A stretch of 64,000 nt of DNA from Candidatus Solincola daggyaiensis (GCA_015711825.1 JACVJD010000001.1:333-64332), one strand, 5' to 3'. Counted from the stretch's first letter, positions 4,394-22,944 are shown. Numbers and translations: made by a program. The notes: generated by a model not told the origin, from the letters alone.

Positions 4394-5065
4394 TCAGAAG
4401 AAGCCCATCTGCTCCGGCTCGGATACATCCGCCGGCTCCGCGGGTTCCGCCCGCGACGCCGCTCCAGACACCGTCTCCCGTTCCCATCGCGTCCTCTCGG
4501 CCTCCAGGTGCTCCTTCAGCCTCTGGAAATCCTCGATGAGCACGCTTTTTAACGGCGGTTTGTGAAGGGCGGCTGCGGGATGAAACAGGGGGACATAGGC
4601 AAGGCCGTCCCTGTGCAGTAGCTTGCCGTGGAGCTGGGTGATGCCGGTGCCGGTCTTGAGCAAGGTCTTGGTGGCGTGATTGCCCAGGGTGCATATGATG
4701 CGCGGCGCGATGATCTCTATCTGCTTGAACAGATAAGGGGTACACATCTTCAGCTCATCGGGCTGCGGATCGCGGTTGTCGGGCGGCCTGCACTTGAGGG
4801 TGTTGGCTATATAAACCTGGGAGCGCCTCAGTCCGATGGAGGCCAGGAGCTGGTCCAGGAACTGTCCCGCAGGACCCACGAAGGGTATTCCCTGACGGTC
4901 TTCCTGGAAGCCGGGTGCCTCTCCCACGAACATGATGTCCGCGTCCTCGTCGCCCGTGCCCAAGACCAGGTTGGTTCGCGTCTCCCCTAGCGGACAGCGG
5001 CGACAGTCGCGGATGGCCTCGTAGAGCTCCTCTATGGTCGTCGCCTGGCGCCAATCGACTGCCAT
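4394..5065 (-). CDS. uracil-DNA glycosylase, family 4 (Fe-S type)
   Basis: CRRCPLGETRTNLVLGTGDEDADIMFVGEAPGFQEDRQGIPFVGPAGQFLDQLL ... HPAAALH, the family-4 UDG signature. The ORF track's 85-codon upstream extension was trimmed to MAVDWRQ. Confidence 0.8.
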   Translation of the reverse strand: MAVDWRQATTIEELYEAIRDCRRCPLGETRTNLVLGTGDEDADIMFVGEAPGFQEDRQGIPFVGPAGQFLDQLLASIGLRRSQVYIANTLKCRPPDNRDPQPDELKMCTPYLFKQIEIIAPRIICTLGNHATKTLLKTGTGITQLHGKLLHRDGLAYVPLFHPAAALHKPPLKSVLIEDFQRLKEHLEAERTRWERETVSGAASRAEPAEPADVSEPEQMGFF

Positions 5066-5073
5066 GTCCTCCC

Positions 5074-5310
5074 CTAACTGGAGCATCCGGTGCAGCTGGC
5101 GGCGGTGCATGAGCTGCATCCCGAGGAGCCGGCCGAAGACCTGAAATCCCCGGAGGAGGCCGACCCGCTCTTGAAGCCGAAGGTGGAGAAGAGCTTCTTT
5201 ATCCTCTTCTTGCCGCACACGGCGCAGCGCTCCGCCTCGTCGGACATGTTGCGGGCGAAGTGCTCGAAGGTCTCGCCGCAAGCCTCGCACTTGTATTCGT
5301 AAAAAGGCAT
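5074..5310 (-). CDS. FmdB-family zinc-ribbon protein
   Basis: MPFYEYKCEACGETFEHF...CAVCG, the FmdB putative regulatory zinc-ribbon motif; Ser/Gly/Cys-rich tail. Confidence 0.75.
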   Translation of the reverse strand: MPFYEYKCEACGETFEHFARNMSDEAERCAVCGKKRIKKLFSTFGFKSGSASSGDFRSSAGSSGCSSCTAASCTGCSS

Positions 5311-5610
5311 CCCTCATCACTTCCTTTCCGCTTTCTCTCCTTGATTTTAATCACATCGCCCGAGGGCAGGCAACGAGCCGCATCATCTTCAAGCAGGGCG
5401 CCCGACCGTAAAAAGCGAGCTCTCCGGCCGTAACCGGCGCTTGTGGCTGCCGGTCATACCTAAACCGCCCGCTTCTCCCGGCCGCCACCCCCCGCCATTA
5501 TCTTTAACACACCCTTGCGGGAGAAGAACCTCTTGTGATCATGCGCTCCCAAGGCGTGCTCCCGGCCATCGCTCCCGCGAGCCGGGACGTAATTGTCTCC
5601 CCTCTCGCCA

Positions 5611-5619
5611 TGGTGTAAT
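5611..5619 (+). promoter_or_regulatory. candidate extended -10 promoter element (TGgTGTAAT) for the glycosylation operon
   Basis: TGn + TGTAAT sits 47 nt upstream of the 5666 start codon in the divergent fmdB / GT-fusion intergenic region. Confidence 0.3.
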
Positions 5620-5665
5620 GTCTTGCTAGCCTTGTTCCGTATTTCCGGCTGGTTCAGGATAAAGG

Positions 5666-8600
5666 ATGAGCGTGACCGCTTTGCCGCCATCGGAGCGGGA
5701 TAAAAAACGGAGGCTTTGGCCTCTGGCCATCATCGCGTTGGTGCTGGCGGCTTTCTTCCACTCCATGCTCACCCTGTCGAGGGTTCCATGGATATCGGAT
5801 ATAAAGTCATATTATTACCCTGCATGGCGCTACCTCGCCCACGCCTTCCGCTCCGGGGGGCCCTCGCTGTGGTGTTCCGGGATCTATTGCGGCTTTCCCC
5901 TTTTCGCCGACAGCGAGATGGGGCTGTTCTATCCCGTGAACCTTCTCTTCTTCCAGCTCCCGGCCACGGCGGGGTTCAACTACTGCATCATCCTGCATTA
6001 TCTTCTGGGAGGCGTTTTTACCTACATGTACTGCCGGCGCCTGCGGTTGGGCCGCTCCGCCTCCCTTTTCGCCGCCCTGCCGTTTACGCTGGGGGGGTTT
6101 TTTCTGGCACACATGGTGCACCCCAACGCCGTCGCCACCGCGGCTTGGATGCCCCTGTTCCTTTACTGCCTGGAGAGAGCTCTTTCGGAGGGAAAGCCGT
6201 CTTTCCACCTCGCGGCAGGGGGGGTGCTCGGCCTGCAGTGCCTTTCCGGCTTCTTGATGATACCGCTCATGCAGGCGTTGCTGGCTTTTTTCTATCTCCT
6301 TTCCCACTCCTTTGACGAGCAAGGCGACAGGCGCAGGTTTTTGCTCATCAACCTCGCCTGGCTCATCCTGGCGCTGGGGCTGGGGGTTTGCCTCGGCATG
6401 GTGCAGAACCTGCCCAGTTACCACCTGGTCCAGAACTCCTACCGCGCCGGCGGGCTGTCGGAAAAAGTGGCCGGTATAGGCAGCATGCCGCCCGCTCAAC
6501 TTCTGGGCATCGTGCTTCCAAGGCTTTTCGGGAGAGGCCTGGCGCAGGGGGGTTACCTGGGGGCTTGGACCTTCGAGGAGACCTACGCATATATGGGCGT
6601 ACTCCCTATCCTTTTCGCCTCCGCGGCGCTGCTGCGGCCGCGCCGCAGGCACGCCGCCTTCTTCTTCTGGATGGGGACGGTCTCGCTTTTGCTCAGCCTG
6701 GGCAGGTACGGCCTGCTCTGGTCGGCATTGCGCCACCTCCCCGGCTTCAACGTGCTCAAGGGCTCAAGCCGCTTCATCCTCACCTTCAACCTCTCCCTGG
6801 CCGTGCTGGGAGGGATGGGGTTCGAGCGCTGGCGCAGCGGAGAGTTCCCCTCCCGCATGGCGAGGTCCCTTTCCCGCGCCTGGTTGAGGGTCGCCGCCGC
6901 CGCAGCCGCGCTGGCCGCCATCCCGGTGCTCCTGTACCGCTTCGACGTCCTGGGGTTCAGGGACCTGGCGGCGGCCGCGGCCAAGCCCTTCCTGGCGGGG
7001 ATAAAGCTTCCGACGCGCCGTGTCCTCGACGGCCTGGTCTCGTTCTTCACCGCCCCGCGCCTGGACCTCCTGCTCCCTCCGGTGATGCTGGCCCTCTTCC
7101 TGCTCCTCATACGCGCCGACGGCGAGGGGGAATACGGACCCAGCCGCCTCAAGGTCTTCATCGCCGTGGGCCTTGCCGTGGTGGACGTTTTCGCCTTCGG
7201 GAACTTCGTGCTCAAGCCGGTTCCCAGGGAACGGGCGGACTTCAAGCCGCAGGTGATCGGCTACCTGAAGGAGAACGCGGGCGACGCCAGGGTGGCCCTG
7301 GCCAAAGAGCCCGGCGTGGATCGCGGCGAGTTCCCCCTCTGCTCCAACCAGCTGCTTCCCTACGGCCTCGAGGACGCCTTCGGGTTCTCCACCATCCCGC
7401 CCGCGCGCCTCGACCGCTTCCTGGCCCTGGTGAACGACCGCCCGGAGGCCTCCGCCTTCGAGCTGCTCGGCGTGGGTTTGCTCTACTCCAACCTCTCCAG
7501 GGTGCAAGGCACCACCTACGATCTGTCCGACCCCTATCCCATTCCCGGCGGCCTGGGCGCGGTGAGCTACGCCTTTCCCTCCCGTACCTCGGGGAGGGAA
7601 CTGCGCCTGCTGGTGGACGGCAGCATCCTGGAGCCGAGCGCCTCCGGACGGCTTTGCTTCAAGTTGAACTCCATCATCAACGGACGGGTGGTGAAGCACC
7701 CCGTCCTTTTCCTGCACAAGGACAGCGGCCCCGAGGAATACTTCCTCGCGGTTATCGACGCGGAGCAGACCGCCTCCTTCGAGCGCGTGCGCTTCCGCTC
7801 ACCCGGCCACGGGGAGGGGCGTGAAGCCTTGGAGATAAGGGTTCCGCTTCCCAGTTTGGGAGAGGCGGACGAGCTCATCCTCACCACCCTCTGCGACCCG
7901 GCCCTCGAGGGAACCCGAATCGCGGCCGTCACCGCCATCGACAAGGACGGGAGGCGCGTTCCCCTCACCGCCTGGCCTTCCGTGTATTGCGACGGCAAGA
8001 ACGCGGTGTACGAACTGCCAAACCGCCTCACCGAGGCATATGCGGCATGGGAGGTCTCCTGGAGCGGAAGCTGGGGGGAAGCGGTGGACCGCGCCTTCCG
8101 CGAGGACCTGGGCATGGGCGAGGTCGTCCTGGTGGAAAGCGAGATCGGCCCCGAAACGCGCAAGGCACTGACCGCCCTCTCCCCTCCCGAAAGGGAGCCC
8201 TCCATCGAGGTGGCGGAGAGCGGAGGCGACGGTATGGCCCTGCGCGTCAGGGGTGACGGCGATTTCATCCTGGTGGTCTCGCTCGATTTCATGCCCGGCT
8301 GGAGGGCCACGGTGGACGGCGAGGAGGCGCCCCTGTTTTCCGCCAACGGCTTCCTTACCGCCCTGCACATGAAGCGAGGAGAACATGTGGTGCTGCTCTC
8401 CTACCGTCCCCCCGGCTTAGCAAGCGGTGCGGCGGTGTCCTCGCTTTCCCTGGCGCTCCTCGTTTTTCTCTTCATGTTATCGAGAAGGAAGGAAGGCCGG
8501 GCGGCGGAGCCGACGAGCCTGGAGACTCCCGTGGCGAGAACAGCCGGCGGGAGCATAAGCGCCTTCTTCCCCTGCTACAACGACTCCGCCACCCTCAAGG

Positions 8601-9247
8601 GTCTTATAGAGAAAGCCCTCGCCGTACTCGACGACCTCGCCGATGACTACGAGGTGATCGTGGTGGACGACGGCAGCGCGGACTCCTCCGGAGAGGTCAT
8701 AGACCAGTTGGCGGCGTCCTACGAAAAGGTACGCGTGGTAAGGCACGACCGCAACCGCGGTTACGGAGCCGCTCTGCGCAGCGGCATAAGGACCTCCACC
8801 AAGGACTGGGTCTTCTACACCGACAGCGACGGGCAGTACGAGGTGGAGGACCTCCGACTGCTGCACGCCATGAGCGGCGATGCGGACGTGGTCAACGGCT
8901 TCAAGACGGGGCGCAGCGACGCCTGGTATCGCAAGTTTCTGGGGTGGGCCTACAACCGACTGGTTCGCTTCGCCTTCGCCATCCCCATCCGCGACGTGGA
9001 CTGCGATTTCAGGCTCATGCGGGGCGAGCTGGTGCGCAGCCTGGATCTCCGCTCGGAGGGCGGGGCCATCTGCGTGGAGCTGGTCAAGGAATTGCAGGCG
9101 GCGGGGGCGGTGTTCGCGGAGGCGCCCGTGGGACATTATCCGCGCGCGGAGGGCAGGAGCCAGTTCTTCCGCCTCAAAAACCTGCTTGTCATGGCGAGGG
9201 AGATTGCGGCACTATGGTGGAGAATGCAGAGGAAAGGGGTGGTGTGA
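5666..9247 (+). CDS. fusion protein: N-terminal YfhO-like polytopic membrane (GT-C type) glycosyltransferase domain + large periplasmic domain + TM helix + C-terminal GT2 polyprenyl-phosphate sugar transferase (DPM1/GtrB/CsbB/ArnC-like)
   Basis: Residues 1-470 have at least 10 hydrophobic helices with a YfhO-like start (SDIKSYYYPAWRYL...GFPLFADSEMGLFYPVNLL). A TM segment follows near residue 925 (LSLALLVFLFMLS). The C-terminus is FPCYNDSATL...VIVVDDGSADSS...YTDSDGQY...DFRLMRGE, a GT2 DXD fold. Good RBS (aaagga) before the ATG; the antisense frames are R/G/P-rich junk. Confidence 0.75.
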   Translation: MSVTALPPSERDKKRRLWPLAIIALVLAAFFHSMLTLSRVPWISDIKSYYYPAWRYLAHAFRSGGPSLWCSGIYCGFPLFADSEMGLFYPVNLLFFQLPATAGFNYCIILHYLLGGVFTYMYCRRLRLGRSASLFAALPFTLGGFFLAHMVHPNAVATAAWMPLFLYCLERALSEGKPSFHLAAGGVLGLQCLSGFLMIPLMQALLAFFYLLSHSFDEQGDRRRFLLINLAWLILALGLGVCLGMVQNLPSYHLVQNSYRAGGLSEKVAGIGSMPPAQLLGIVLPRLFGRGLAQGGYLGAWTFEETYAYMGVLPILFASAALLRPRRRHAAFFFWMGTVSLLLSLGRYGLLWSALRHLPGFNVLKGSSRFILTFNLSLAVLGGMGFERWRSGEFPSRMARSLSRAWLRVAAAAAALAAIPVLLYRFDVLGFRDLAAAAAKPFLAGIKLPTRRVLDGLVSFFTAPRLDLLLPPVMLALFLLLIRADGEGEYGPSRLKVFIAVGLAVVDVFAFGNFVLKPVPRERADFKPQVIGYLKENAGDARVALAKEPGVDRGEFPLCSNQLLPYGLEDAFGFSTIPPARLDRFLALVNDRPEASAFELLGVGLLYSNLSRVQGTTYDLSDPYPIPGGLGAVSYAFPSRTSGRELRLLVDGSILEPSASGRLCFKLNSIINGRVVKHPVLFLHKDSGPEEYFLAVIDAEQTASFERVRFRSPGHGEGREALEIRVPLPSLGEADELILTTLCDPALEGTRIAAVTAIDKDGRRVPLTAWPSVYCDGKNAVYELPNRLTEAYAAWEVSWSGSWGEAVDRAFREDLGMGEVVLVESEIGPETRKALTALSPPEREPSIEVAESGGDGMALRVRGDGDFILVVSLDFMPGWRATVDGEEAPLFSANGFLTALHMKRGEHVVLLSYRPPGLASGAAVSSLSLALLVFLFMLSRRKEGRAAEPTSLETPVARTAGGSISAFFPCYNDSATLKGLIEKALAVLDDLADDYEVIVVDDGSADSSGEVIDQLAASYEKVRVVRHDRNRGYGAALRSGIRTSTKDWVFYTDSDGQYEVEDLRLLHAMSGDADVVNGFKTGRSDAWYRKFLGWAYNRLVRFAFAIPIRDVDCDFRLMRGELVRSLDLRSEGGAICVELVKELQAAGAVFAEAPVGHYPRAEGRSQFFRLKNLLVMAREIAALWWRMQRKGVV

Positions 9248-10294
9248 ATGGGCGAGCTCGCCCCGCTGCGCGAAAGCTACTCCGGAAAACGCGTTCTGGT
9301 CACGGGAGGACTGGGGTTCATCGGCAGCGGACTGGTGCGGAGACTGGTGCGCATGGGAGCATCGGTCACCGTCATCGACGCATGCTTTCCCGACCAAGGC
9401 GCCAACCTCTTCAACCTAAAAGGCGTGCTCGACGAAGTTGCTCTGGTGGTCGCCGACATCGGGCGCGTCGACGACATCTCCGCCTACATAGTGGATCAGG
9501 ATTACGTCTTCAATCTGGCCGCCTGTATCAGCCATGTGGGCTCGTTGCGCGACCCCCTTCGCGACCTCGAGCGCAATTGCGTAAGCCAGCTGCGCTTCCT
9601 CGGCGCCCTCACGGAACTCAGCCGGGGGGCGCGAGTGCTGTACACGGGCTCGCGCAGCCAGTACGGAAGTCCCCTCTACACTCCCATGGACGAGGAGCAC
9701 CCCTTGAGGCCCGTGGACTTCAACGGCGTTCACAAAACGGCGGTGGAGGAATACCACCGCATCCTTCACGGGCTGGACAAGCTGCGCTTCACCTCCCTGC
9801 GACTGACCAACATCTACGGACCCAGGCACCAGATGCACCACGACGGGCAGGGCTTCCTCAACTGGTTCATCCGCCAAGCCCTGGCGGGCCAGGAGCTGTG
9901 CGTCTATGGGGACGGCACGCAGAAACGCGACTTCCTTTACGTTGACGATGCGGTGGAGGCCATCCTTCTCGCCGCCTCGGACCCACGTTGCGAGGGAAAG
10001 GTCTTCAACCTCGCCTCGGGCTTTCCCGTCAGCGTGGCGGAGGCGGCGGCGGTCATATGCGAGGTTTCCGGAAACTCCTATCGCTGCGTGCCCTACCCTC
10101 CCGACGCGGTGGCGGTGGAGCCCGGGGACATCCACCTGGACGGCTCGCGGCTGCAGGAACTGCTCGCTTGGAGGCCCCGGGTCGAGCTTAGGGAGGGGAT
10201 CGAGAAGACCCTTTACTTCTACCGTCGCCACGGCTCGCGCTATTTCCATGAGGGAAAGGCGCGCGTGGACTTGAAAGCGGGTGCCATGGGATGA
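9248..10294 (+). CDS. NAD-dependent epimerase/dehydratase, extended SDR family (UDP-sugar decarboxylase/4-epimerase-like)
   Basis: Rossmann motif VLVTGGLGFIGSGLVRRLV, SRSQYG and K(TAVE) motifs. Its ATG overlaps the upstream stop (TGAATG). Confidence 0.8.
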   Translation: MGELAPLRESYSGKRVLVTGGLGFIGSGLVRRLVRMGASVTVIDACFPDQGANLFNLKGVLDEVALVVADIGRVDDISAYIVDQDYVFNLAACISHVGSLRDPLRDLERNCVSQLRFLGALTELSRGARVLYTGSRSQYGSPLYTPMDEEHPLRPVDFNGVHKTAVEEYHRILHGLDKLRFTSLRLTNIYGPRHQMHHDGQGFLNWFIRQALAGQELCVYGDGTQKRDFLYVDDAVEAILLAASDPRCEGKVFNLASGFPVSVAEAAAVICEVSGNSYRCVPYPPDAVAVEPGDIHLDGSRLQELLAWRPRVELREGIEKTLYFYRRHGSRYFHEGKARVDLKAGAMG

Positions 10295-10365
10295 AACGCG
10301 ACGCCGCGCTCGCGAGCGTCCCGGCACCGCAACCGCGGCGCCCAGGCCGGCGAGGATAGGACGGC

Positions 10366-11517
10366 ATGGGCGAGACCACCGTTCCCTTCCTGGACCTCTC
10401 GCGCCGGGACGAGGAAATGCACGCCGAGGTCTCGGAGGCCTTTGCGCGCGTGCTGCGGGGGGGAAGGTTTATTCTGGGCCCCGAGGTCTCCTCCTTCGAG
10501 GAGGAGTTCGCCTCCTACTGCGGGGTGAGGCATGTCATCGGCGTGGCCTCGGGCACGGACGCCATCGTCCTCGCCCTGAAGGCCCTGGGCATATCCCCCG
10601 GAGACGAGGTGATCACCACGGCTCTTTCCGCTCCCCCCACCGCGGTCGCCGTGACCCTGGCGGGCGGCCGCCCGCTCTTCGTCGATATAGACCCTGCAAG
10701 CCGCTGTATAGACCCCAGCGAGGTCGAGAAGTCCATCGGCCCCCGCACGCGCTTCCTTCTCGTCGTGCACCTTTACGGGCGCCTGGCGGATATGGAAGCG
10801 CTTTCCAGGATCGCCCGCGAACACGAGCTGCTGGTGGTGGAGGACTGCGCCCAGGCCCATGGAGCCCGGGCGGGAAACAGGTCGGCGGGCTGCTGGAGCC
10901 GCGCGGGATGCTACAGCTTTTACCCCACCAAGAACCTGGGGGCTTACGGTGACGGCGGCGCGGTGGTAACCGGGGACGCGGAGCTGGCGCAGCGGCTGCG
11001 CTCGCTGCGCGATTACGGGCGCGTCGACCGTGACCTGCTGGCGGAAATCGGCATGAACAGCCGTCTTGACGAGCTGCAAGCGGCCCTTCTTCGCGTCAAG
11101 TTGCGGCGCTTGGAAGCCTGGAACCGCCGGCGCCGCGAGCTGGCGCGCCGCTACCAGGAGGGGCTTGCGGACCTTCCCCTCGACCTCCCTTCCTGGGATG
11201 GGGATGAGGACCATTGCTTTCACCTCTGGGTAACGGGATGCGAGGAGCGTGACGCGCTGCGCTCATACCTGGGAGAGAAAGGCATCGAGACCGCCGTGCA
11301 CTATCCCGTTCCCCTGCACCTTCAGAAGCCCTACCTGGTGGGGGGAAGGCCGGTCTTCTCCTGCCCGGAGGCGGAGCGTTTCTGCGCCCGTGCCCTCTCC
11401 CTCCCCCTGTATCCCTACCTGTCAGACCGCGAGCAGGAAGCGGTCATCTCCGCGGTGAGGGAGTTCTACCGCCGCCATCGAACGTACGCGTGCGGGGGAA
11501 ACGCGGCCAGAACCTGA
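10366..11517 (+). CDS. DegT/DnrJ/EryC1/StrS-family PLP-dependent sugar aminotransferase (ArnB/WecE-like)
   Basis: FEEEFASYCGVRHVIGVASGTDA ... SFYPTKNLGAYGDGGAVVT (PLP lysine) ... MNSRLDELQAALL. Confidence 0.85.
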   Translation: MGETTVPFLDLSRRDEEMHAEVSEAFARVLRGGRFILGPEVSSFEEEFASYCGVRHVIGVASGTDAIVLALKALGISPGDEVITTALSAPPTAVAVTLAGGRPLFVDIDPASRCIDPSEVEKSIGPRTRFLLVVHLYGRLADMEALSRIAREHELLVVEDCAQAHGARAGNRSAGCWSRAGCYSFYPTKNLGAYGDGGAVVTGDAELAQRLRSLRDYGRVDRDLLAEIGMNSRLDELQAALLRVKLRRLEAWNRRRRELARRYQEGLADLPLDLPSWDGDEDHCFHLWVTGCEERDALRSYLGEKGIETAVHYPVPLHLQKPYLVGGRPVFSCPEAERFCARALSLPLYPYLSDREQEAVISAVREFYRRHRTYACGGNAART

Positions 11518-19376: not shown

Positions 19377-21203
19377 TCACTCCACGGTAACCGTCTTGGC
19401 CAGGTTGCGCGGCTGGTCCACGTTGCATCCCCGCATCTTGGCGATATGATAAGCGAGCAGCTGCAAGGCCGGCGCCAGCACCACGGGGTTGAACTGAGGC
19501 CTGACCTCCGGGACGAAGATCGCCTCGTCGCTGAAACCGCCCACCTCATGGTTGCCCCTGGTGGCCATGGCGATCACCGGTGCCTGCCTGGCACGTACCT
19601 CCTCGATGTTGTTACGCACCTTGTCGTAGATGGGGTCGCTGGGAATGAGGGCCACCACCGGAAAACCGGGATGGAGCAAGGCGATGGGACCGTGCTTCAT
19701 CTCTCCCGCCGGGTAGCCCTCGGCGTGGATATACGATATCTCCTTCAGCTTCAGCGCCGCCTCCATGGCCATGGGGTAGTTGATGTTGCGACCCAGGAAT
19801 AGAAAATCCTCGCAGCGGCAGTACTTTTCAGCGCAGGTCTCGACGGCCTCCGTGTCCTCGAGCACCTCCTCTATGCTGCCCGTCAAGCTCTCCAGGTAGG
19901 AGAACACCTCCCGCACAAAGCCCTCCTCCAGAAGCCCCCTCTCCTGCCCCAGGTAGAGGCCGAGGAGATAGACCGCCGCCATCTGTGCGATGAAGGTCTT
20001 GGTCGCCGCCACCCCTATCTCCAGGCCGGCATGGGTATAGAGTACCCCGTCCGATTCCCGCGCCATCATGCTTCCGACCACGTTGACGACGGACAGGGAC
20101 GGGGCCCCGCAGCGCGCCGCCCAGCGCACCGCCCCCATGGTGTCCAGGGTCTCCCCGGACTGGCTCACCGCCACCACCAGGCACGAGGGATCCAGCCGCG
20201 GCTCGCGGTAATAGAACTCGGAGGCGATATCCACCTCCACCGGGATATCCATCCAGGCCTCGAAGATGTAGCGTCCCAGCAGCGAGGCATGATAGGAGGT
20301 GCCGCAGGAAACGAAGATGATGCGCCGGATGGAGCTCAAGTCTATGCCGTGTCCCTCCAGCTCCTCTATGCGCAGCCTCCCCGACCTGTCCAGGCGTCCC
20401 CGTAAGGTGTTCTTCCACGCCTGCGGCTGCTCGTATATCTCCTTGAGCATAAAATCGGCATAGCCGCCTTTCTCCACCGCCGCGACGTCGTAAGGGATCT
20501 CGAAAGGCCGGCGTTCCACCGGCCTGCCGGCGAGGTCGAGGAGCCTCCACGTATCTCTGGTAACCTTTGCCATTTCACCGTTCTCCAAGGCGAGCGCGCG
20601 GTGGGTGCAGTCAAGCAGCGCCGGGGTGGCGGATGCCAGGAGGTTCTCTCCCTCACCCAACCCCAGCACCAGGGGGCTGTCCTTGCGTGCTCCCACCAGC
20701 ACACCAGGCTCGCGTGACGACATGACCACCAGGGCATAGGCCCCCTCCAGCCTCCGCAAAGCCCTCCTTACCGCCTCCAGGAGGTCCCCTTGATATTCCT
20801 CCTCCACCAGGTGGGCCACCACCTCCGAGTCGGTCTGGGAAAGGAAGCGATGCCCCCTGGCGGTCAACTCCTCCCGCAACTCCTGGAAGTTCTCGATGAT
20901 GCCGTTGTGCACCACCGCGATCTCCCCTCTGCAGTCGAGATGGGGGTGGGCGTTCTCGGTGGTGGGATGGCCGTGGGTCGCCCAGCGGGTATGGGCGATG
21001 CCCATGGAGGCTTCCCGGGGCAGCGCTTCAAGATGCGGCTCCAGGCTATCCAGGTTGCCCCTGCGTTTTAGCAGCGAGATCCTTTCCCCGTCGTGTACGG
21101 CGATCCCCGCGGAATCGTATCCCCGGTACTCCAGGCGGCGTAAACCCCGGAAAAGGGTCTCGTTCACGGGGCGGAATCCCACGTAACCGATTATGCCGCA
21201 CAT
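19377..21203 (-). CDS. glmS: glutamine--fructose-6-phosphate aminotransferase
   Basis: MCGIIGYVG N-terminal nucleophile; two SIS domains; ends ...TVTVE; 608 aa. Confidence 0.95.
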   Translation of the reverse strand: MCGIIGYVGFRPVNETLFRGLRRLEYRGYDSAGIAVHDGERISLLKRRGNLDSLEPHLEALPREASMGIAHTRWATHGHPTTENAHPHLDCRGEIAVVHNGIIENFQELREELTARGHRFLSQTDSEVVAHLVEEEYQGDLLEAVRRALRRLEGAYALVVMSSREPGVLVGARKDSPLVLGLGEGENLLASATPALLDCTHRALALENGEMAKVTRDTWRLLDLAGRPVERRPFEIPYDVAAVEKGGYADFMLKEIYEQPQAWKNTLRGRLDRSGRLRIEELEGHGIDLSSIRRIIFVSCGTSYHASLLGRYIFEAWMDIPVEVDIASEFYYREPRLDPSCLVVAVSQSGETLDTMGAVRWAARCGAPSLSVVNVVGSMMARESDGVLYTHAGLEIGVAATKTFIAQMAAVYLLGLYLGQERGLLEEGFVREVFSYLESLTGSIEEVLEDTEAVETCAEKYCRCEDFLFLGRNINYPMAMEAALKLKEISYIHAEGYPAGEMKHGPIALLHPGFPVVALIPSDPIYDKVRNNIEEVRARQAPVIAMATRGNHEVGGFSDEAIFVPEVRPQFNPVVLAPALQLLAYHIAKMRGCNVDQPRNLAKTVTVE

Positions 21204-21204
21204 C

Positions 21205-22560
21205 TCATCCCAACTCCCGCTCGATCAACGCCGCCAGAGTCTGCGCGGCCTCCTCCGCCAGCCCCGCATCCATGGCCTCCACCATCACCCTCACCAGGGG
21301 CTCCGTCCCCGAGGGGCGCAGCAACACGCGTCCCTGGTCGGAAAGGCGCTCCTCCCAATCGCGCCTCGCCCGCGATACCTCGCGCGAGTGCTCCAGGGCG
21401 GACCTATCCCGCACCTTCACGTTGATCAAGACCTGGGGGACACGCTCCACCATGCCCCCGAGGGACGAGAGGCTTTCGCCGCTCTCCGTTATCACCTTCA
21501 TCAACTGCAGCGCCGTCACCAACCCGTCGCCGGTGGTGGCGTGATCGGCGAATATGATATGTCCCGATTGCTCCCCGCCCAGGTTCAGGTCCAGCTCCAG
21601 CATCCTCTCCAGCACGAAACGGTCTCCAACGGAAGCGACATGGACCTCTATACCCTCCCTGCGCATGGCGCGGTGAAAGCCCAGGTTGGACATGACCGTG
21701 GCTACCAGGGCGTTCTTTTTCAGGATGCCCTCCGCCTTCATGTGTATCGCGCAGGCAGCCATGATGACGTCGCCGTCCACCAGCGCCCCCGTCTCGTCCA
21801 CCGCCAGCAGGCGGTCGGCGTCTCCGTCGAAGGCCAAACCGAAGTGCGCCCTCTCCTCCACCACCGCCCGCTGCAAGCCCTCCGGCCGGGTTGAACCGCA
21901 GGCGCAGTTGATGTTGAGTCCGTCCGGATCCACACCCAAGGCGACCACTTCCGCCCCCAGCTCGCTCAGGAGGCGGGGAGCAAGGCGGTAAACGGCGCCG
22001 TTTGCGCAGTCCACCACCACCTTCATCCCCGAGAGGTCGGGGTCGGCAACGGACAAAAGATGTTCCAGGTAGAGCGCCTCCGCATCGCCGGTGTGGCATA
22101 CGCAGCCTACACGATCACCGTCCGGACGACCATCCCCCATCTCGCCGCGCACCAGGGACTCGATGGTCCACTCTATCTCGTCGGGCAGCTTGTAACCGCT
22201 ATGGTGGAAGAACTTTATGCCGTTGTCGCGCGCCGGGTTGTGGGAAGCGGAGATAACCACCCCCGCGTCGGCGCCTTTCCTGCGCGTAAGGTAGGCCACT
22301 GCCGGGGTAGGGATGATCCCAAGGCACTCCGCCCGACCCCCTCGGGAGCATATCCCGGCTGCCAGGGCGGACTCCAGCATAGTGCCCGATATGCGCGTAT
22401 CCCGGCCGATGACCAGGAAGGGGTGAGGGTTTCCGCAGGCCAGCGCCTCCACCGCCGCGCTTCCCACCCGCATGGCGAGCTCCGGTGTGAGTTCCAGGTT
22501 TGCTATGCCCCTTATCCCGTCGGTGCCGAAAAGCCGCCGCCCTTCAACGGTATCCCGCAT
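21205..22560 (-). CDS. glmM: phosphoglucosamine mutase
   Basis: LFGTDGIRG...ISASHNPARDNGIKFF; start placed at MRDTVEG with GGGAG RBS 7 nt upstream. Confidence 0.9.
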   Translation of the reverse strand: MRDTVEGRRLFGTDGIRGIANLELTPELAMRVGSAAVEALACGNPHPFLVIGRDTRISGTMLESALAAGICSRGGRAECLGIIPTPAVAYLTRRKGADAGVVISASHNPARDNGIKFFHHSGYKLPDEIEWTIESLVRGEMGDGRPDGDRVGCVCHTGDAEALYLEHLLSVADPDLSGMKVVVDCANGAVYRLAPRLLSELGAEVVALGVDPDGLNINCACGSTRPEGLQRAVVEERAHFGLAFDGDADRLLAVDETGALVDGDVIMAACAIHMKAEGILKKNALVATVMSNLGFHRAMRREGIEVHVASVGDRFVLERMLELDLNLGGEQSGHIIFADHATTGDGLVTALQLMKVITESGESLSSLGGMVERVPQVLINVKVRDRSALEHSREVSRARRDWEERLSDQGRVLLRPSGTEPLVRVMVEAMDAGLAEEAAQTLAALIERELG

Positions 22561-22944
22561 GGCACTCTCCCGTTTTTCCATATCAGGACTATAGCACCCG
22601 CGCTTTCCGCCCTTCAAGAAAAGCCCGTCCTCGCTCCTCTTTCCCGACCAGACCCGGCGCCGCGCTCTCCGGCTAGAGCATACGGCGGGTTCTCCATCTA
22701 CCTTCATGCCCTCATCTACCGCCGGACAAGAGTGCGCCATCCTTTTTTGGTGTCCAAATCAGCAAGCCATATGCAACCGCAATAGAGACGGTTTCACTTG
22801 CGCCCCGCGGGTGCTTTCATCCCCGCATGTTGCGGCTTCCGCGCGACGCCAACCCCCATCCCTAAAAAACCCCGCTCCGCAAGGGAGTAAAGGCGCGAGG
22901 GCGCTCGCCGGACTCATCGGGTATGAGTTGGATAAAGATGGGGG

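Follow-up and report, generated by a model that had tools for sequence, protein, structure and literature searches.

Three genes on the plus strand of a 64,000-nucleotide (nt) stretch of Candidatus Solincola daggyaiensis DNA (GCA_015711825.1, JACVJD010000001.1:333-64332; hereafter the window, meaning the whole stretch that was analysed) form, in our moderately confident reading, one operon for extracytoplasmic modification with an amino sugar delivered on a polyprenyl-phosphate carrier. The open reading frames (ORFs) at 5666-9247, 9248-10294 and 10366-11517 encode proteins of 1193, 348 and 383 amino acids (aa), respectively: a YfhO-family membrane glycosyltransferase (GT) of the GT-C type fused to a polyprenyl-phosphate-type GT2 enzyme (gene 1), an atypical short-chain dehydrogenase/reductase of the extended class (SDR; gene 2) and a DegT/DnrJ/EryC1/StrS sugar aminotransferase dependent on pyridoxal 5′-phosphate (PLP; gene 3, hereafter DegT). 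The TGA stop codon of gene 1 abuts the ATG of gene 2, with the purine-rich AGGAAAGGGG just 5′ of the junction; genes 2 and 3 are 71 nt apart and GAGGA precedes the gene 3 start, so that the layout makes translational coupling likely. Both flanks consist of housekeeping genes on the opposite strand, those for uracil-DNA glycosylase (UDG), a Zn-ribbon protein, TsaE, TsaB and TsaD upstream, and those for a nitroreductase, an S58 peptidase, the CCA-adding enzyme, alanine racemase (alr) and YjeF downstream; the three genes thus stand apart as a discrete unit, an isolated island. Three co-directional, nearly abutting genes of these families had been predicted at these positions by an earlier, sequence-only reading, which our analysis confirmed with Pfam matches above cut-off.

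The domain structure of the gene 1 product (5666..9247, plus strand) was established with Pfam, AlphaFold2 (AF2) and Foldseek. Pfam places PMT_2 at aa 106-242 (29.2 bits; cut-off 26.1), YfhO (PF09586) in two stretches, one of them aa 864-925 (55.2 bits; cut-off 28.5), and Glycos_transf_2 at aa 965-1123 (93.4 bits). An AF2 model built on 25 orthologues (predicted local distance difference test score (pLDDT) 82.4, predicted template-modelling score 0.74) runs from a transmembrane (TM) bundle through a beta-rich outer domain, a single TM helix and a disordered linker to a GT-A domain. The bundle (aa 1-515; 5666..7210, plus strand), delimited by AF2 helices, hydropathy, Pfam and Foldseek, contains the PMT_2 match, and Foldseek matches the model of the GT-C domain to AftD and EmbA/B. 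Asp45 in the first extracytoplasmic loop (5798..5800, plus strand) is invariant in the 25 fusions and equally in 18 diverse members of the YfhO family (21-40% identity), and by this conservation is the candidate catalytic Asp of the GT-C enzyme. The D82-S83-E84 motif of the same loop (5909..5917, plus strand) is invariant among the fusions, and the consensus of the wider YfhO family at that position is A-D-x-Q. The multi-spanning fold and the conserved acidic residue in an outer loop are those of a GT-C enzyme.

The beta-rich extracytoplasmic domain (aa 540-913; 7283..8404, plus strand), modelled by AF2 with a pLDDT mostly of 80-95, is a candidate acceptor-binding module. It includes the YfhO C-terminal motif P-G-W-R-A-x-V-D-G (aa 877-885), of which W879, D884 and G885 are invariant across the 18 diverse YfhO proteins. 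Hydropathy and AF2 place the last TM helix at aa 918-947 (8417..8506, plus strand); it is followed by RRKEGR, and the chain re-enters the cytoplasm. The N-terminus, rich in Lys and Arg, is probably cytoplasmic as well. These two features put both ends of the protein on the cytoplasmic side and the beta-rich domain on the outer side, which is the orientation needed to combine a cytoplasmic enzyme using a nucleotide sugar with an outward-facing GT-C enzyme. The N-terminal TM bundle, large outer domain, C-terminal TM helix and PGWxAxVDG motif together make up the YfhO architecture. The earlier assignment of the N-terminal part to a YfhO-family GT-C thus stands, on the Pfam score, the AftD/Emb matches of the AF2 model and the invariant Asp45. 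Judged by sequence, the fusion belongs to the YfhO Pfam family but is no orthologue of any characterised member, and none of the gene products reaches an equivalog cut-off in NCBIfam.

Beyond a disordered linker (aa 948-960; 8507..8545, plus strand; pLDDT <50), which is the fusion junction, lies the cytoplasmic GT-A (GT2) domain (aa 963-1189; 8552..9232, plus strand), defined by AF2 and Pfam. It carries the motifs DDGSAD (aa 1001-1006; 8666-8683, plus strand) and TDSDGQY (aa 1052-1058; 8819-8839, plus strand), whose aspartates D1001/D1002 and D1053/D1055 are invariant among the 25 fusions and supply the DxD-type acidic motifs of a GT-A polyprenyl-phosphate sugar synthase. Polyprenyl-phosphate glycosyltransferases take the first three places among its structural matches; by sequence, ArnC is the best match among solved structures (73 bits).

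Gene 1 is a true fusion and not, as the sequence-only reading had allowed, two genes joined by an assembly frameshift. In the protein database, 38 orthologues exceed 1100 aa and cover the full length; they share 34-80% identity, come from independent assemblies and all have a precomputed PF09586 match. At the same syntenic place, after UDG and TsaE, a relative at 40% identity (P0041) has separate genes for a YfhO protein (975 aa) and a GT2 protein (275 aa), which overlap by 11 nt and are followed by SDR and then DegT genes. This YfhO protein aligns to fusion aa 20-948 and the GT2 protein to aa 961-1180, so that the split falls exactly at the low-confidence linker. The 38 orthologues and the split version together exclude a frameshift as the origin of the fusion. 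The full-length YfhO-then-GT2 architecture occurs in just three 50%-identity clusters among 1.84 billion representatives, and a scan of species-representative genomes with the fusion as seed recovered fusions solely in metagenome-assembled genomes (MAGs) of Actinomycetota.

The most divergent fusion orthologue with genomic context (L003:1029-6673, 37% identity, from an 'Actinomycetes bacterium') is followed by DegT and methyltransferase genes; this 10.8-kb contig has no SDR gene, and SDR adjacency is therefore not universal even in fusion-bearing lineages. Other fusions among components of such systems (P0080, P0082, P0086 and P0073) are of two types, one from Anaerolineae that joins YfhO to Wzx/MurJ-type flippase domains in proteins of 1350-1430 aa, and the other a three-domain GT2, GtrA and PMT_2 protein of 1155 aa. 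The fusion is less singular than first assumed, GT2/GT-C fusions having arisen several times.

Gene 2 (9248..10294, plus strand) encodes an extended SDR by its Pfam Epimerase match (154.5 bits), by alignments and by its AF2 model (pLDDT 88.6), which has the two-domain fold of this class and superposes on UDP-sugar 4-epimerases with TM-scores of 0.8-0.9. The Rossmann motif GGLGFIGS (9305-9328, plus strand) is kept, and the NAD-binding elements GGxGFIGS, Asp44 (NAD-specifying) and Asp70 are invariant among homologues. At the canonical S/T-x-x site stands S135-R136-S137 (9650-9658, plus strand), and at the canonical S-x-Y-x-x-x-K site D157-F-N159-G-V-H-K163 (9716-9736, plus strand). The Ser/Thr-Tyr-Lys (YxxxK) signature is thus incomplete, and all top matches in the PDB keep the Tyr. 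Misalignment is not the cause: Asn159 lines up with Tyr in sequence alignments to three solved enzymes and in profile alignments to five, and the AF2 model has a helix from residue 158. All 41 module-linked orthologues, which come from several phyla, have Asn for Tyr and also conserve Asp157 and Arg136, and paralogous SDRs within those loci retain the Tyr.

Database homologues of the SDR number more than 3,000 at E <= 1e-40 and bear generic names throughout. The family motif, [ST]-R-[QSG]...NxxxK, fits none of the dehydratase classes [ST]DE, [ST]DK, [ST]SE and TDK...MxxxK (PMC8987622, Table 1), and PglF/WbpM are examples of SDRs that are active without the Tyr (PMC8987622). A dTDP-glucose 4,6-dehydratase or a UDP-glucuronic acid (GlcA) decarboxylase can be discounted on motifs, with no D-E and no T-S-E: where ArnA and UXS carry T-S-E, the SDR has S-R-S or T-R-Q. 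The NCBIfam ArnA model scores 36 bits (cut-off 777). A Lys-less subgroup (within P0176-P0237) has the motif D-V-N-G-I-N-N together with G-T-R-G-Q-Y-G. One such SDR (L165:6001-6996) still lies inside a cluster of GT2, PMT_2, methyltransferase, SDR and DegT genes, which adjoins B12-radical-SAM genes and a Wzx-type flippase gene.

Gene 3 (10366..11517, plus strand) matches Pfam DegT_DnrJ_EryC1 with 370.3 bits. Its predicted PLP-binding residue, Lys189 (10930-10932, plus strand), is conserved and lies in YPTKNLG, which aligns with YPGKNLG of DesV. Among solved relatives, enzymes acting at C-3 score highest (DesV 359 bits, QdtB 289, WbpE 253, the WlaRG-type enzyme 5u1z 252 and NtdA 211), and enzymes acting at C-4 score below them (ArnB 174-186, perosamine synthase 166, PseC 105 and PglE 71); the NCBIfam ArnB model NF008658 gives 208 bits against a cut-off of 631. 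The earlier label 'ArnB-type' is thus right solely at the level of the family.

The linkage of the three functions extends well beyond this genome. Stand-alone GT2 proteins of about 226 aa, 48-56% identical to fusion aa 963-1187, were found by the fusion-seeded scan in Acidobacteriota, Chloroflexota, Acidimicrobiia, Chthoniobacterales, Binatia, the Candidate Phyla Radiation and others. We counted the 42 GT2 loci with at least 3.5 kb on each side and sought partners within 5 kb: an Asn-type SDR and a DegT gene are both present in 23, and one of the two in a further 9. From the other side, a metagenome scan seeded with the SDR gave 36 well-flanked loci, of which 34 have DegT next to the SDR and 22 contain the GT2. 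The commonest gene order is GT2, SDR, DegT. A large multi-TM protein, a candidate GT-C partner, is encoded within 3.5 kb in 34 of 59 module loci, and 46 such neighbours include 22 PMT_2, 6 YfhO, 2 GT87, 2 PMT and 1 GT22 proteins. GT2 orthologues (44-52% identity) are fused to DegT (P0255 and P0360), and others to a SAM methyltransferase (P0337), N-terminally to PMT_2 (P0275, P0276 and P0286) or, in reverse order, to YfhO (P0382). These independent fusions place the lipid-loading GT2, the GT-C enzymes and the aminotransferase in a common pathway, and, with a gene order conserved across phyla, they bear out the earlier suggestion of a functional link between the three genes.

The module neighbourhoods show no enrichment of nucleotidyltransferases, UDP-glucose dehydrogenase, cupin isomerases, acyltransferases or GtrA, in keeping with a start from a common sugar nucleotide. 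RmlA/RmlB are not enriched near module loci either. None of the DegT-only loci has a Gfo/Idh/MocA dehydrogenase in place of the SDR, a replacement that would have supported a 3-dehydrogenase role.

Two further gene families accompany the module elsewhere. A class-I SAM methyltransferase of about 250 aa (Methyltransf_25/11) lies beside the GT2 gene in 30 of the 42 loci, more often than the SDR and DegT pair (23 of 42), for example at L043:3858-4622(-), L142:3006-3752(+) and L003:6095-6673(+); no counterpart is present in the window. It could act on N or O of the amino sugar, at the nucleotide or the lipid stage. An N,N-dimethyltransferase of the TylM1/DesVI type was considered and set aside, as there is no specific similarity to the solved examples, and an apparent methyltransferase-YfhO fusion in L101 is an artefact of ORF calling. 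In 11 acidobacterial module loci, a conserved protein of about 594 aa with some 10 TM helices and no Pfam match is encoded directly 5′ of GT2 (for example L078:6180-7964(+), L015:6182-7993(+) and L025:6177-7955(+)). It is a candidate for an undescribed GT-C-like transferase of the lipid-linked amino sugar.

Anatomy, conservation and linkage being direct observations, the chemistry proposed here draws on inference and homology. In the first and weakest step, the SDR would start from a common nucleotide sugar (a UDP-hexose or UDP-N-acetylhexosamine is most likely) and form a keto-sugar by a route without 4,6-dehydration or decarboxylation, using a non-canonical site of Ser/Thr135, Arg136, Asp157 and Asn159. 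DegT would then transaminate the keto group, with homology suggesting C-3 rather than C-4. Next, the cytoplasmic GT2 domain would move the amino sugar to undecaprenyl phosphate or another polyprenyl phosphate, as its fold, motifs, linkage and fusions indicate, and a flippase encoded elsewhere would take the lipid-linked sugar across the membrane. Last, the YfhO-type GT-C domain, with Asp45 and the beta-rich outer domain, would transfer the sugar to an envelope acceptor, possibly a cell-wall polymer, a glycolipid or a protein. The fusion would keep the enzymes that make and use the donor on opposite membrane faces within one protein.

A number of observations weigh against this series of steps. 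None of the 120 best database homologues of the SDR has the catalytic Tyr, which is Asn in each, Lys is also replaced in about 20 of these, and the T-D-K triad of PglF/WbpM is not present in the gene 2 enzyme; with an SDR that lacks the catalytic Tyr, sugar oxidation is an assumption. A 3-amino sugar is the likelier product, as judged solely by relative similarity to solved enzymes. There is no acyltransferase, formyltransferase, deacylase or deformylase gene in the three-gene operon or among the flanking genes, so that the GT2 domain would need to act on a free-amine donor if no protein encoded elsewhere modifies the sugar. To our knowledge, the characterised lipid-carrier amino-sugar systems (Arn, Francisella Flm/NaxD, Bordetella Lgm and mycobacterial PpgS) all load N-acyl derivatives. 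Nor does the window contain a GtrA-like small multi-TM ORF or a Wzx homologue, the flippase search having turned up only SecY, EamA, ATP-binding cassette (ABC) permease and FtsX-like proteins; the operon had been called self-contained, which overstates the case, and a flippase may be encoded elsewhere in the genome. The linkage has exceptions as well. Neither an SDR nor a DegT gene is near the GT2 gene in 10 of the 42 stand-alone loci, and the remaining one-third or so of SDR-DegT pairs lack this GT2 and have GT4, GT2, methyltransferase and GT9 genes of polysaccharide clusters as neighbours. The sequence-only reading had named such pairs without the glycosyltransferase as a sign of an unrelated pathway; they do occur, alongside the 22 of 36 loci in which the GT2 is present, and this objection therefore holds in part. 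Because SDR-DegT pairs are also found in ordinary polysaccharide clusters, we regard the pair as a portable amino-sugar cassette of which this GT2 is the commonest partner. Finally, the host is an uncultured hot-spring member of the Actinomycetota that is known solely from a MAG.

The order of the steps could be different. GT2 might load an ordinary sugar (glucose, N-acetylglucosamine (GlcNAc) or GlcA), with the SDR and DegT modifying the lipid-linked sugar on the cytoplasmic side before flipping and GT-C transfer. The prevailing gene order, GT2-SDR-DegT, would suit such a route, GT2-DegT fusions would put the aminotransferase at the membrane beside its lipid product, and an unusual substrate could be reflected in the non-canonical SDR active site. 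Tailoring at the lipid level has precedents in deformylation by ArnD and in DprE1/DprE2. However, the SDR and DegT resemble soluble enzymes of nucleotide-sugar metabolism, their nearest structures being UDP-sugar epimerases and dTDP-/UDP-sugar aminotransferases; a third of the SDR-DegT pairs have no such GT2 partner and sit in polysaccharide clusters with GT4 and GT2 genes; and we know of no DegT enzyme that acts on a lipid-linked sugar. We consider tailoring on the lipid improbable.

It is likewise unlikely, in our estimate, that the keto-sugar comes from elsewhere (for example dTDP-4-keto-6-deoxyglucose made by RmlA/RmlB) and that the SDR is no oxidase but an isomerase or epimerase, or a non-catalytic partner that presents the substrate. 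The invariant GGxGFIGS, Asp44 and Asp70 argue for a working cofactor site, RmlA/RmlB and cupin isomerase genes are not enriched near the module, and an SDR-fold ketoisomerase is not known to us. What speaks for such a role is the Tyr missing in every homologue and the Lys in some, the tight SDR-DegT adjacency in 34 of 36 loci, and the likeness of DegT to DesV and QdtB above all, whose substrates are dTDP-3-keto-6-deoxyhexoses made by a 3,4-ketoisomerase.

The Arn system (ArnA, ArnB, ArnC, ArnD, ArnT and ArnE/F), which places aminoarabinose on lipid A, has the same flow of SDR oxidation, DegT transamination, GT2 loading and outer GT-C transfer, and the sequence-only reading had drawn this parallel. 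The shape of the flow holds, but the chemistry of the SDR and the aminotransferase differs. The proposed likeness of the SDR to ArnA fails on its motifs, with no T-S-E, no D-E and no catalytic Tyr, so that the residues of the decarboxylase are lacking along with the Tyr, and the aminotransferase is nearer to C-3 enzymes than to ArnB. As the reading had noted, the formyltransferase and deformylase steps are missing from these three genes between housekeeping genes; ArnE/F flippase genes are also missing at the locus, and the GT-C part is of the YfhO type, not ArnT. An Arn-like aminoarabinose route without formylation, in which the SDR would be the oxidative decarboxylase of UDP-GlcA, DegT an ArnB-type C-4 enzyme, and the GT2 and GT-C domains equivalents of ArnC and ArnT, is accordingly very unlikely. 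ArnC is the best match of the GT2 domain both among solved structures (73 bits) and in NCBIfam, but in the latter the model NF007986 gives 77 bits against a cut-off of 529, with the same fold and reaction type and no C-terminal TM helices. The GT-C part has a PMT_2 match, and PMT_2 is the commonest Pfam family among the GT-C neighbours of the module; the invariant Arg136 could, speculatively, bind a carboxylate. Against these points stand the S-R-S/T-R-Q motif of the Tyr-less SDR and its 36 bits (of 777) with the ArnA model, the 174-186 bits of DegT to ArnB as opposed to 359 to DesV, its 208 bits (of 631) with NF008658, the lack of enrichment of UDP-glucose dehydrogenase nearby and the missing formyltransferase and deformylase genes. 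Chance adjacency or separate pathways, with a GT2 that is no polyprenyl-phosphate transferase, would account for the 10 of 42 GT2 orthologues without either partner and for SDR-DegT pairs without GT2, but it is scarcely credible given the order conserved across phyla, the likely translational coupling, the independent fusions of GT2 to DegT and to GT-C enzymes, and the polyprenyl-phosphate glycosyltransferases that make up the top three structural matches of the GT2 domain.

The multi-component transmembrane glycosylation systems CsbB/GtcA/YfhO of Firmicutes decorate lipoteichoic or wall teichoic acid with GlcNAc (PMC8035078). They share with the locus a GT-A polyprenyl-phosphate sugar synthase and a YfhO-family GT-C that transfers outside the membrane, as well as the YfhO layout of TM bundle, large outer domain and terminal TM helix. 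The locus differs from them in having both transferases in one polypeptide, a GT2 of the short form (about 230 aa) without TM helices of its own, no GtrA-type flippase found in the window and, as host, an uncultured Actinomycetota lineage; its dedicated SDR and aminotransferase imply an amino sugar outside housekeeping metabolism and not GlcNAc. In Streptococcus mutans, the Pgf operon combines a GT2 (PgfS), YfhO-like GT-C proteins (PgfM1 and PgfM2) and an SDR epimerase (PgfE), but it has no aminotransferase and its proteins are unfused. The NCBIfam models for PgfS, PgfM1 and PgfM2 match the fusion weakly, at about 28.4-49 bits against cut-offs of 500-1500; for PgfM1 (48.5 bits against 1500) and PgfM2 (28.4 against 1400) the match is limited to the last 70 or so residues.

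Polyprenyl-phosphate delivery of an amino sugar to an envelope polymer by a short GT2 and a GT-C is also shared with mycobacterial PpgS (Rv3631)/Rv3779, which add galactosamine to arabinogalactan, with Francisella FlmF2/FlmK/NaxD and with Bordetella LgmA/B/C. These systems load a housekeeping N-acetyl sugar and then deacetylate it, and they differ from the locus in having neither an SDR/aminotransferase pair nor a fusion; the NCBIfam PpgS model gives the GT2 domain 45 bits (cut-off 370). The 3-amino-sugar routes (DesV/TylB/QdtB, WbpB/WbpE, GnnA/GnnB, NtdC/NtdA and RifL/RifK) have aminotransferases like that of gene 3, always paired with one NAD-type enzyme. In the direct-oxidation routes this dehydrogenase is of the Gfo/Idh/MocA family, and the dTDP routes obtain the keto-sugar from RmlB and a cupin isomerase. 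Here, by contrast, the partner is an SDR-fold protein with Asn for Tyr, and the product is coupled to a lipid-carrier GT2.

Upstream of the operon, an intergenic region of 345 nt (5321..5665, plus strand) that separates it from the divergent Zn-ribbon and UDG genes is the presumed promoter region; a consensus scan revealed no sigma-70-like site on the plus strand. The 308-aa ORF at 4394-5320 (-) is, by public gene calls on the same contig, probably two genes, one for uracil-DNA glycosylase (about 4394-5065) and one for an FmdB-type Zn-ribbon protein (about 5074-5310, start MPFYEYKCEACG). Some 8-11 kb downstream of the operon, glmS (19377-21203) and glmM (21205-22740), both on the minus strand, encode the first steps to UDP-GlcNAc. 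They sit in a housekeeping block with alr and yjeF, are the sole sugar-nucleotide-related function seen near the operon and probably supply peptidoglycan precursors, unrelated to it.

The kind of system found here is known; this variant is set apart by its single-polypeptide GT-C/GT-A enzyme, its dedicated cassette of Tyr-less SDR and DesV-like aminotransferase, and the lack of acyl-protection chemistry. The most unusual element is the pairing of the Tyr-less SDR with the DesV-like aminotransferase. In the searchable literature, which leaves most subscription journals outside, we found no description of a YfhO-GT2 fusion, of this gene module or of an Asn-type sugar SDR. Going further, we propose tentatively, as a possibility that we doubt more than we credit, that the Tyr-less SDR and the DesV-like aminotransferase make up an undescribed two-enzyme amino-sugar route dedicated to polyprenyl phosphate, possibly turning a common UDP-sugar directly into a 3-amino-3-deoxy sugar. 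Joined to GT-C partners that can stand in for one another (YfhO, PMT_2, GT87 and the unclassified acidobacterial membrane protein), it would constitute a widespread, unrecognised class of extracytoplasmic decoration, borne by cell envelopes or by proteins of the surface, across Acidobacteriota, Chloroflexota, Actinomycetota and further phyla that are mostly uncultured. Within this class the Geothermincolia-like fusion would by itself both produce and use up a free-amine lipid donor, with no N-acyl protection.

The value of the locus lies in a solid genomic prediction with one surprising enzymological feature, within the limits set by an uncultured host. The repeated fusions of its components are unusually direct genomic evidence of working partners, and the fusion itself is a less interesting lead than the module as a whole or the atypical family of SDRs, which has thousands of members. 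If the SDR is active, it would represent a new catalytic solution in a heavily studied superfamily, one that breaks the Ser-Tyr-Lys rule, and a new route to amino sugars; if the GT2 takes a free-amine donor, the view that amino sugars need N-acylation before lipid loading would have to be revised. Teichoic acids, lipid A, arabinogalactan and surface proteins receive decorations from lipid-carrier systems of GT-A and GT-C enzymes, and such decorations govern resistance to antibiotics and cationic peptides, phage binding and immune recognition. This locus and roughly a hundred related loci suggest that a dedicated amino-sugar version of these systems is common in phyla whose envelope chemistry is almost uncharted.

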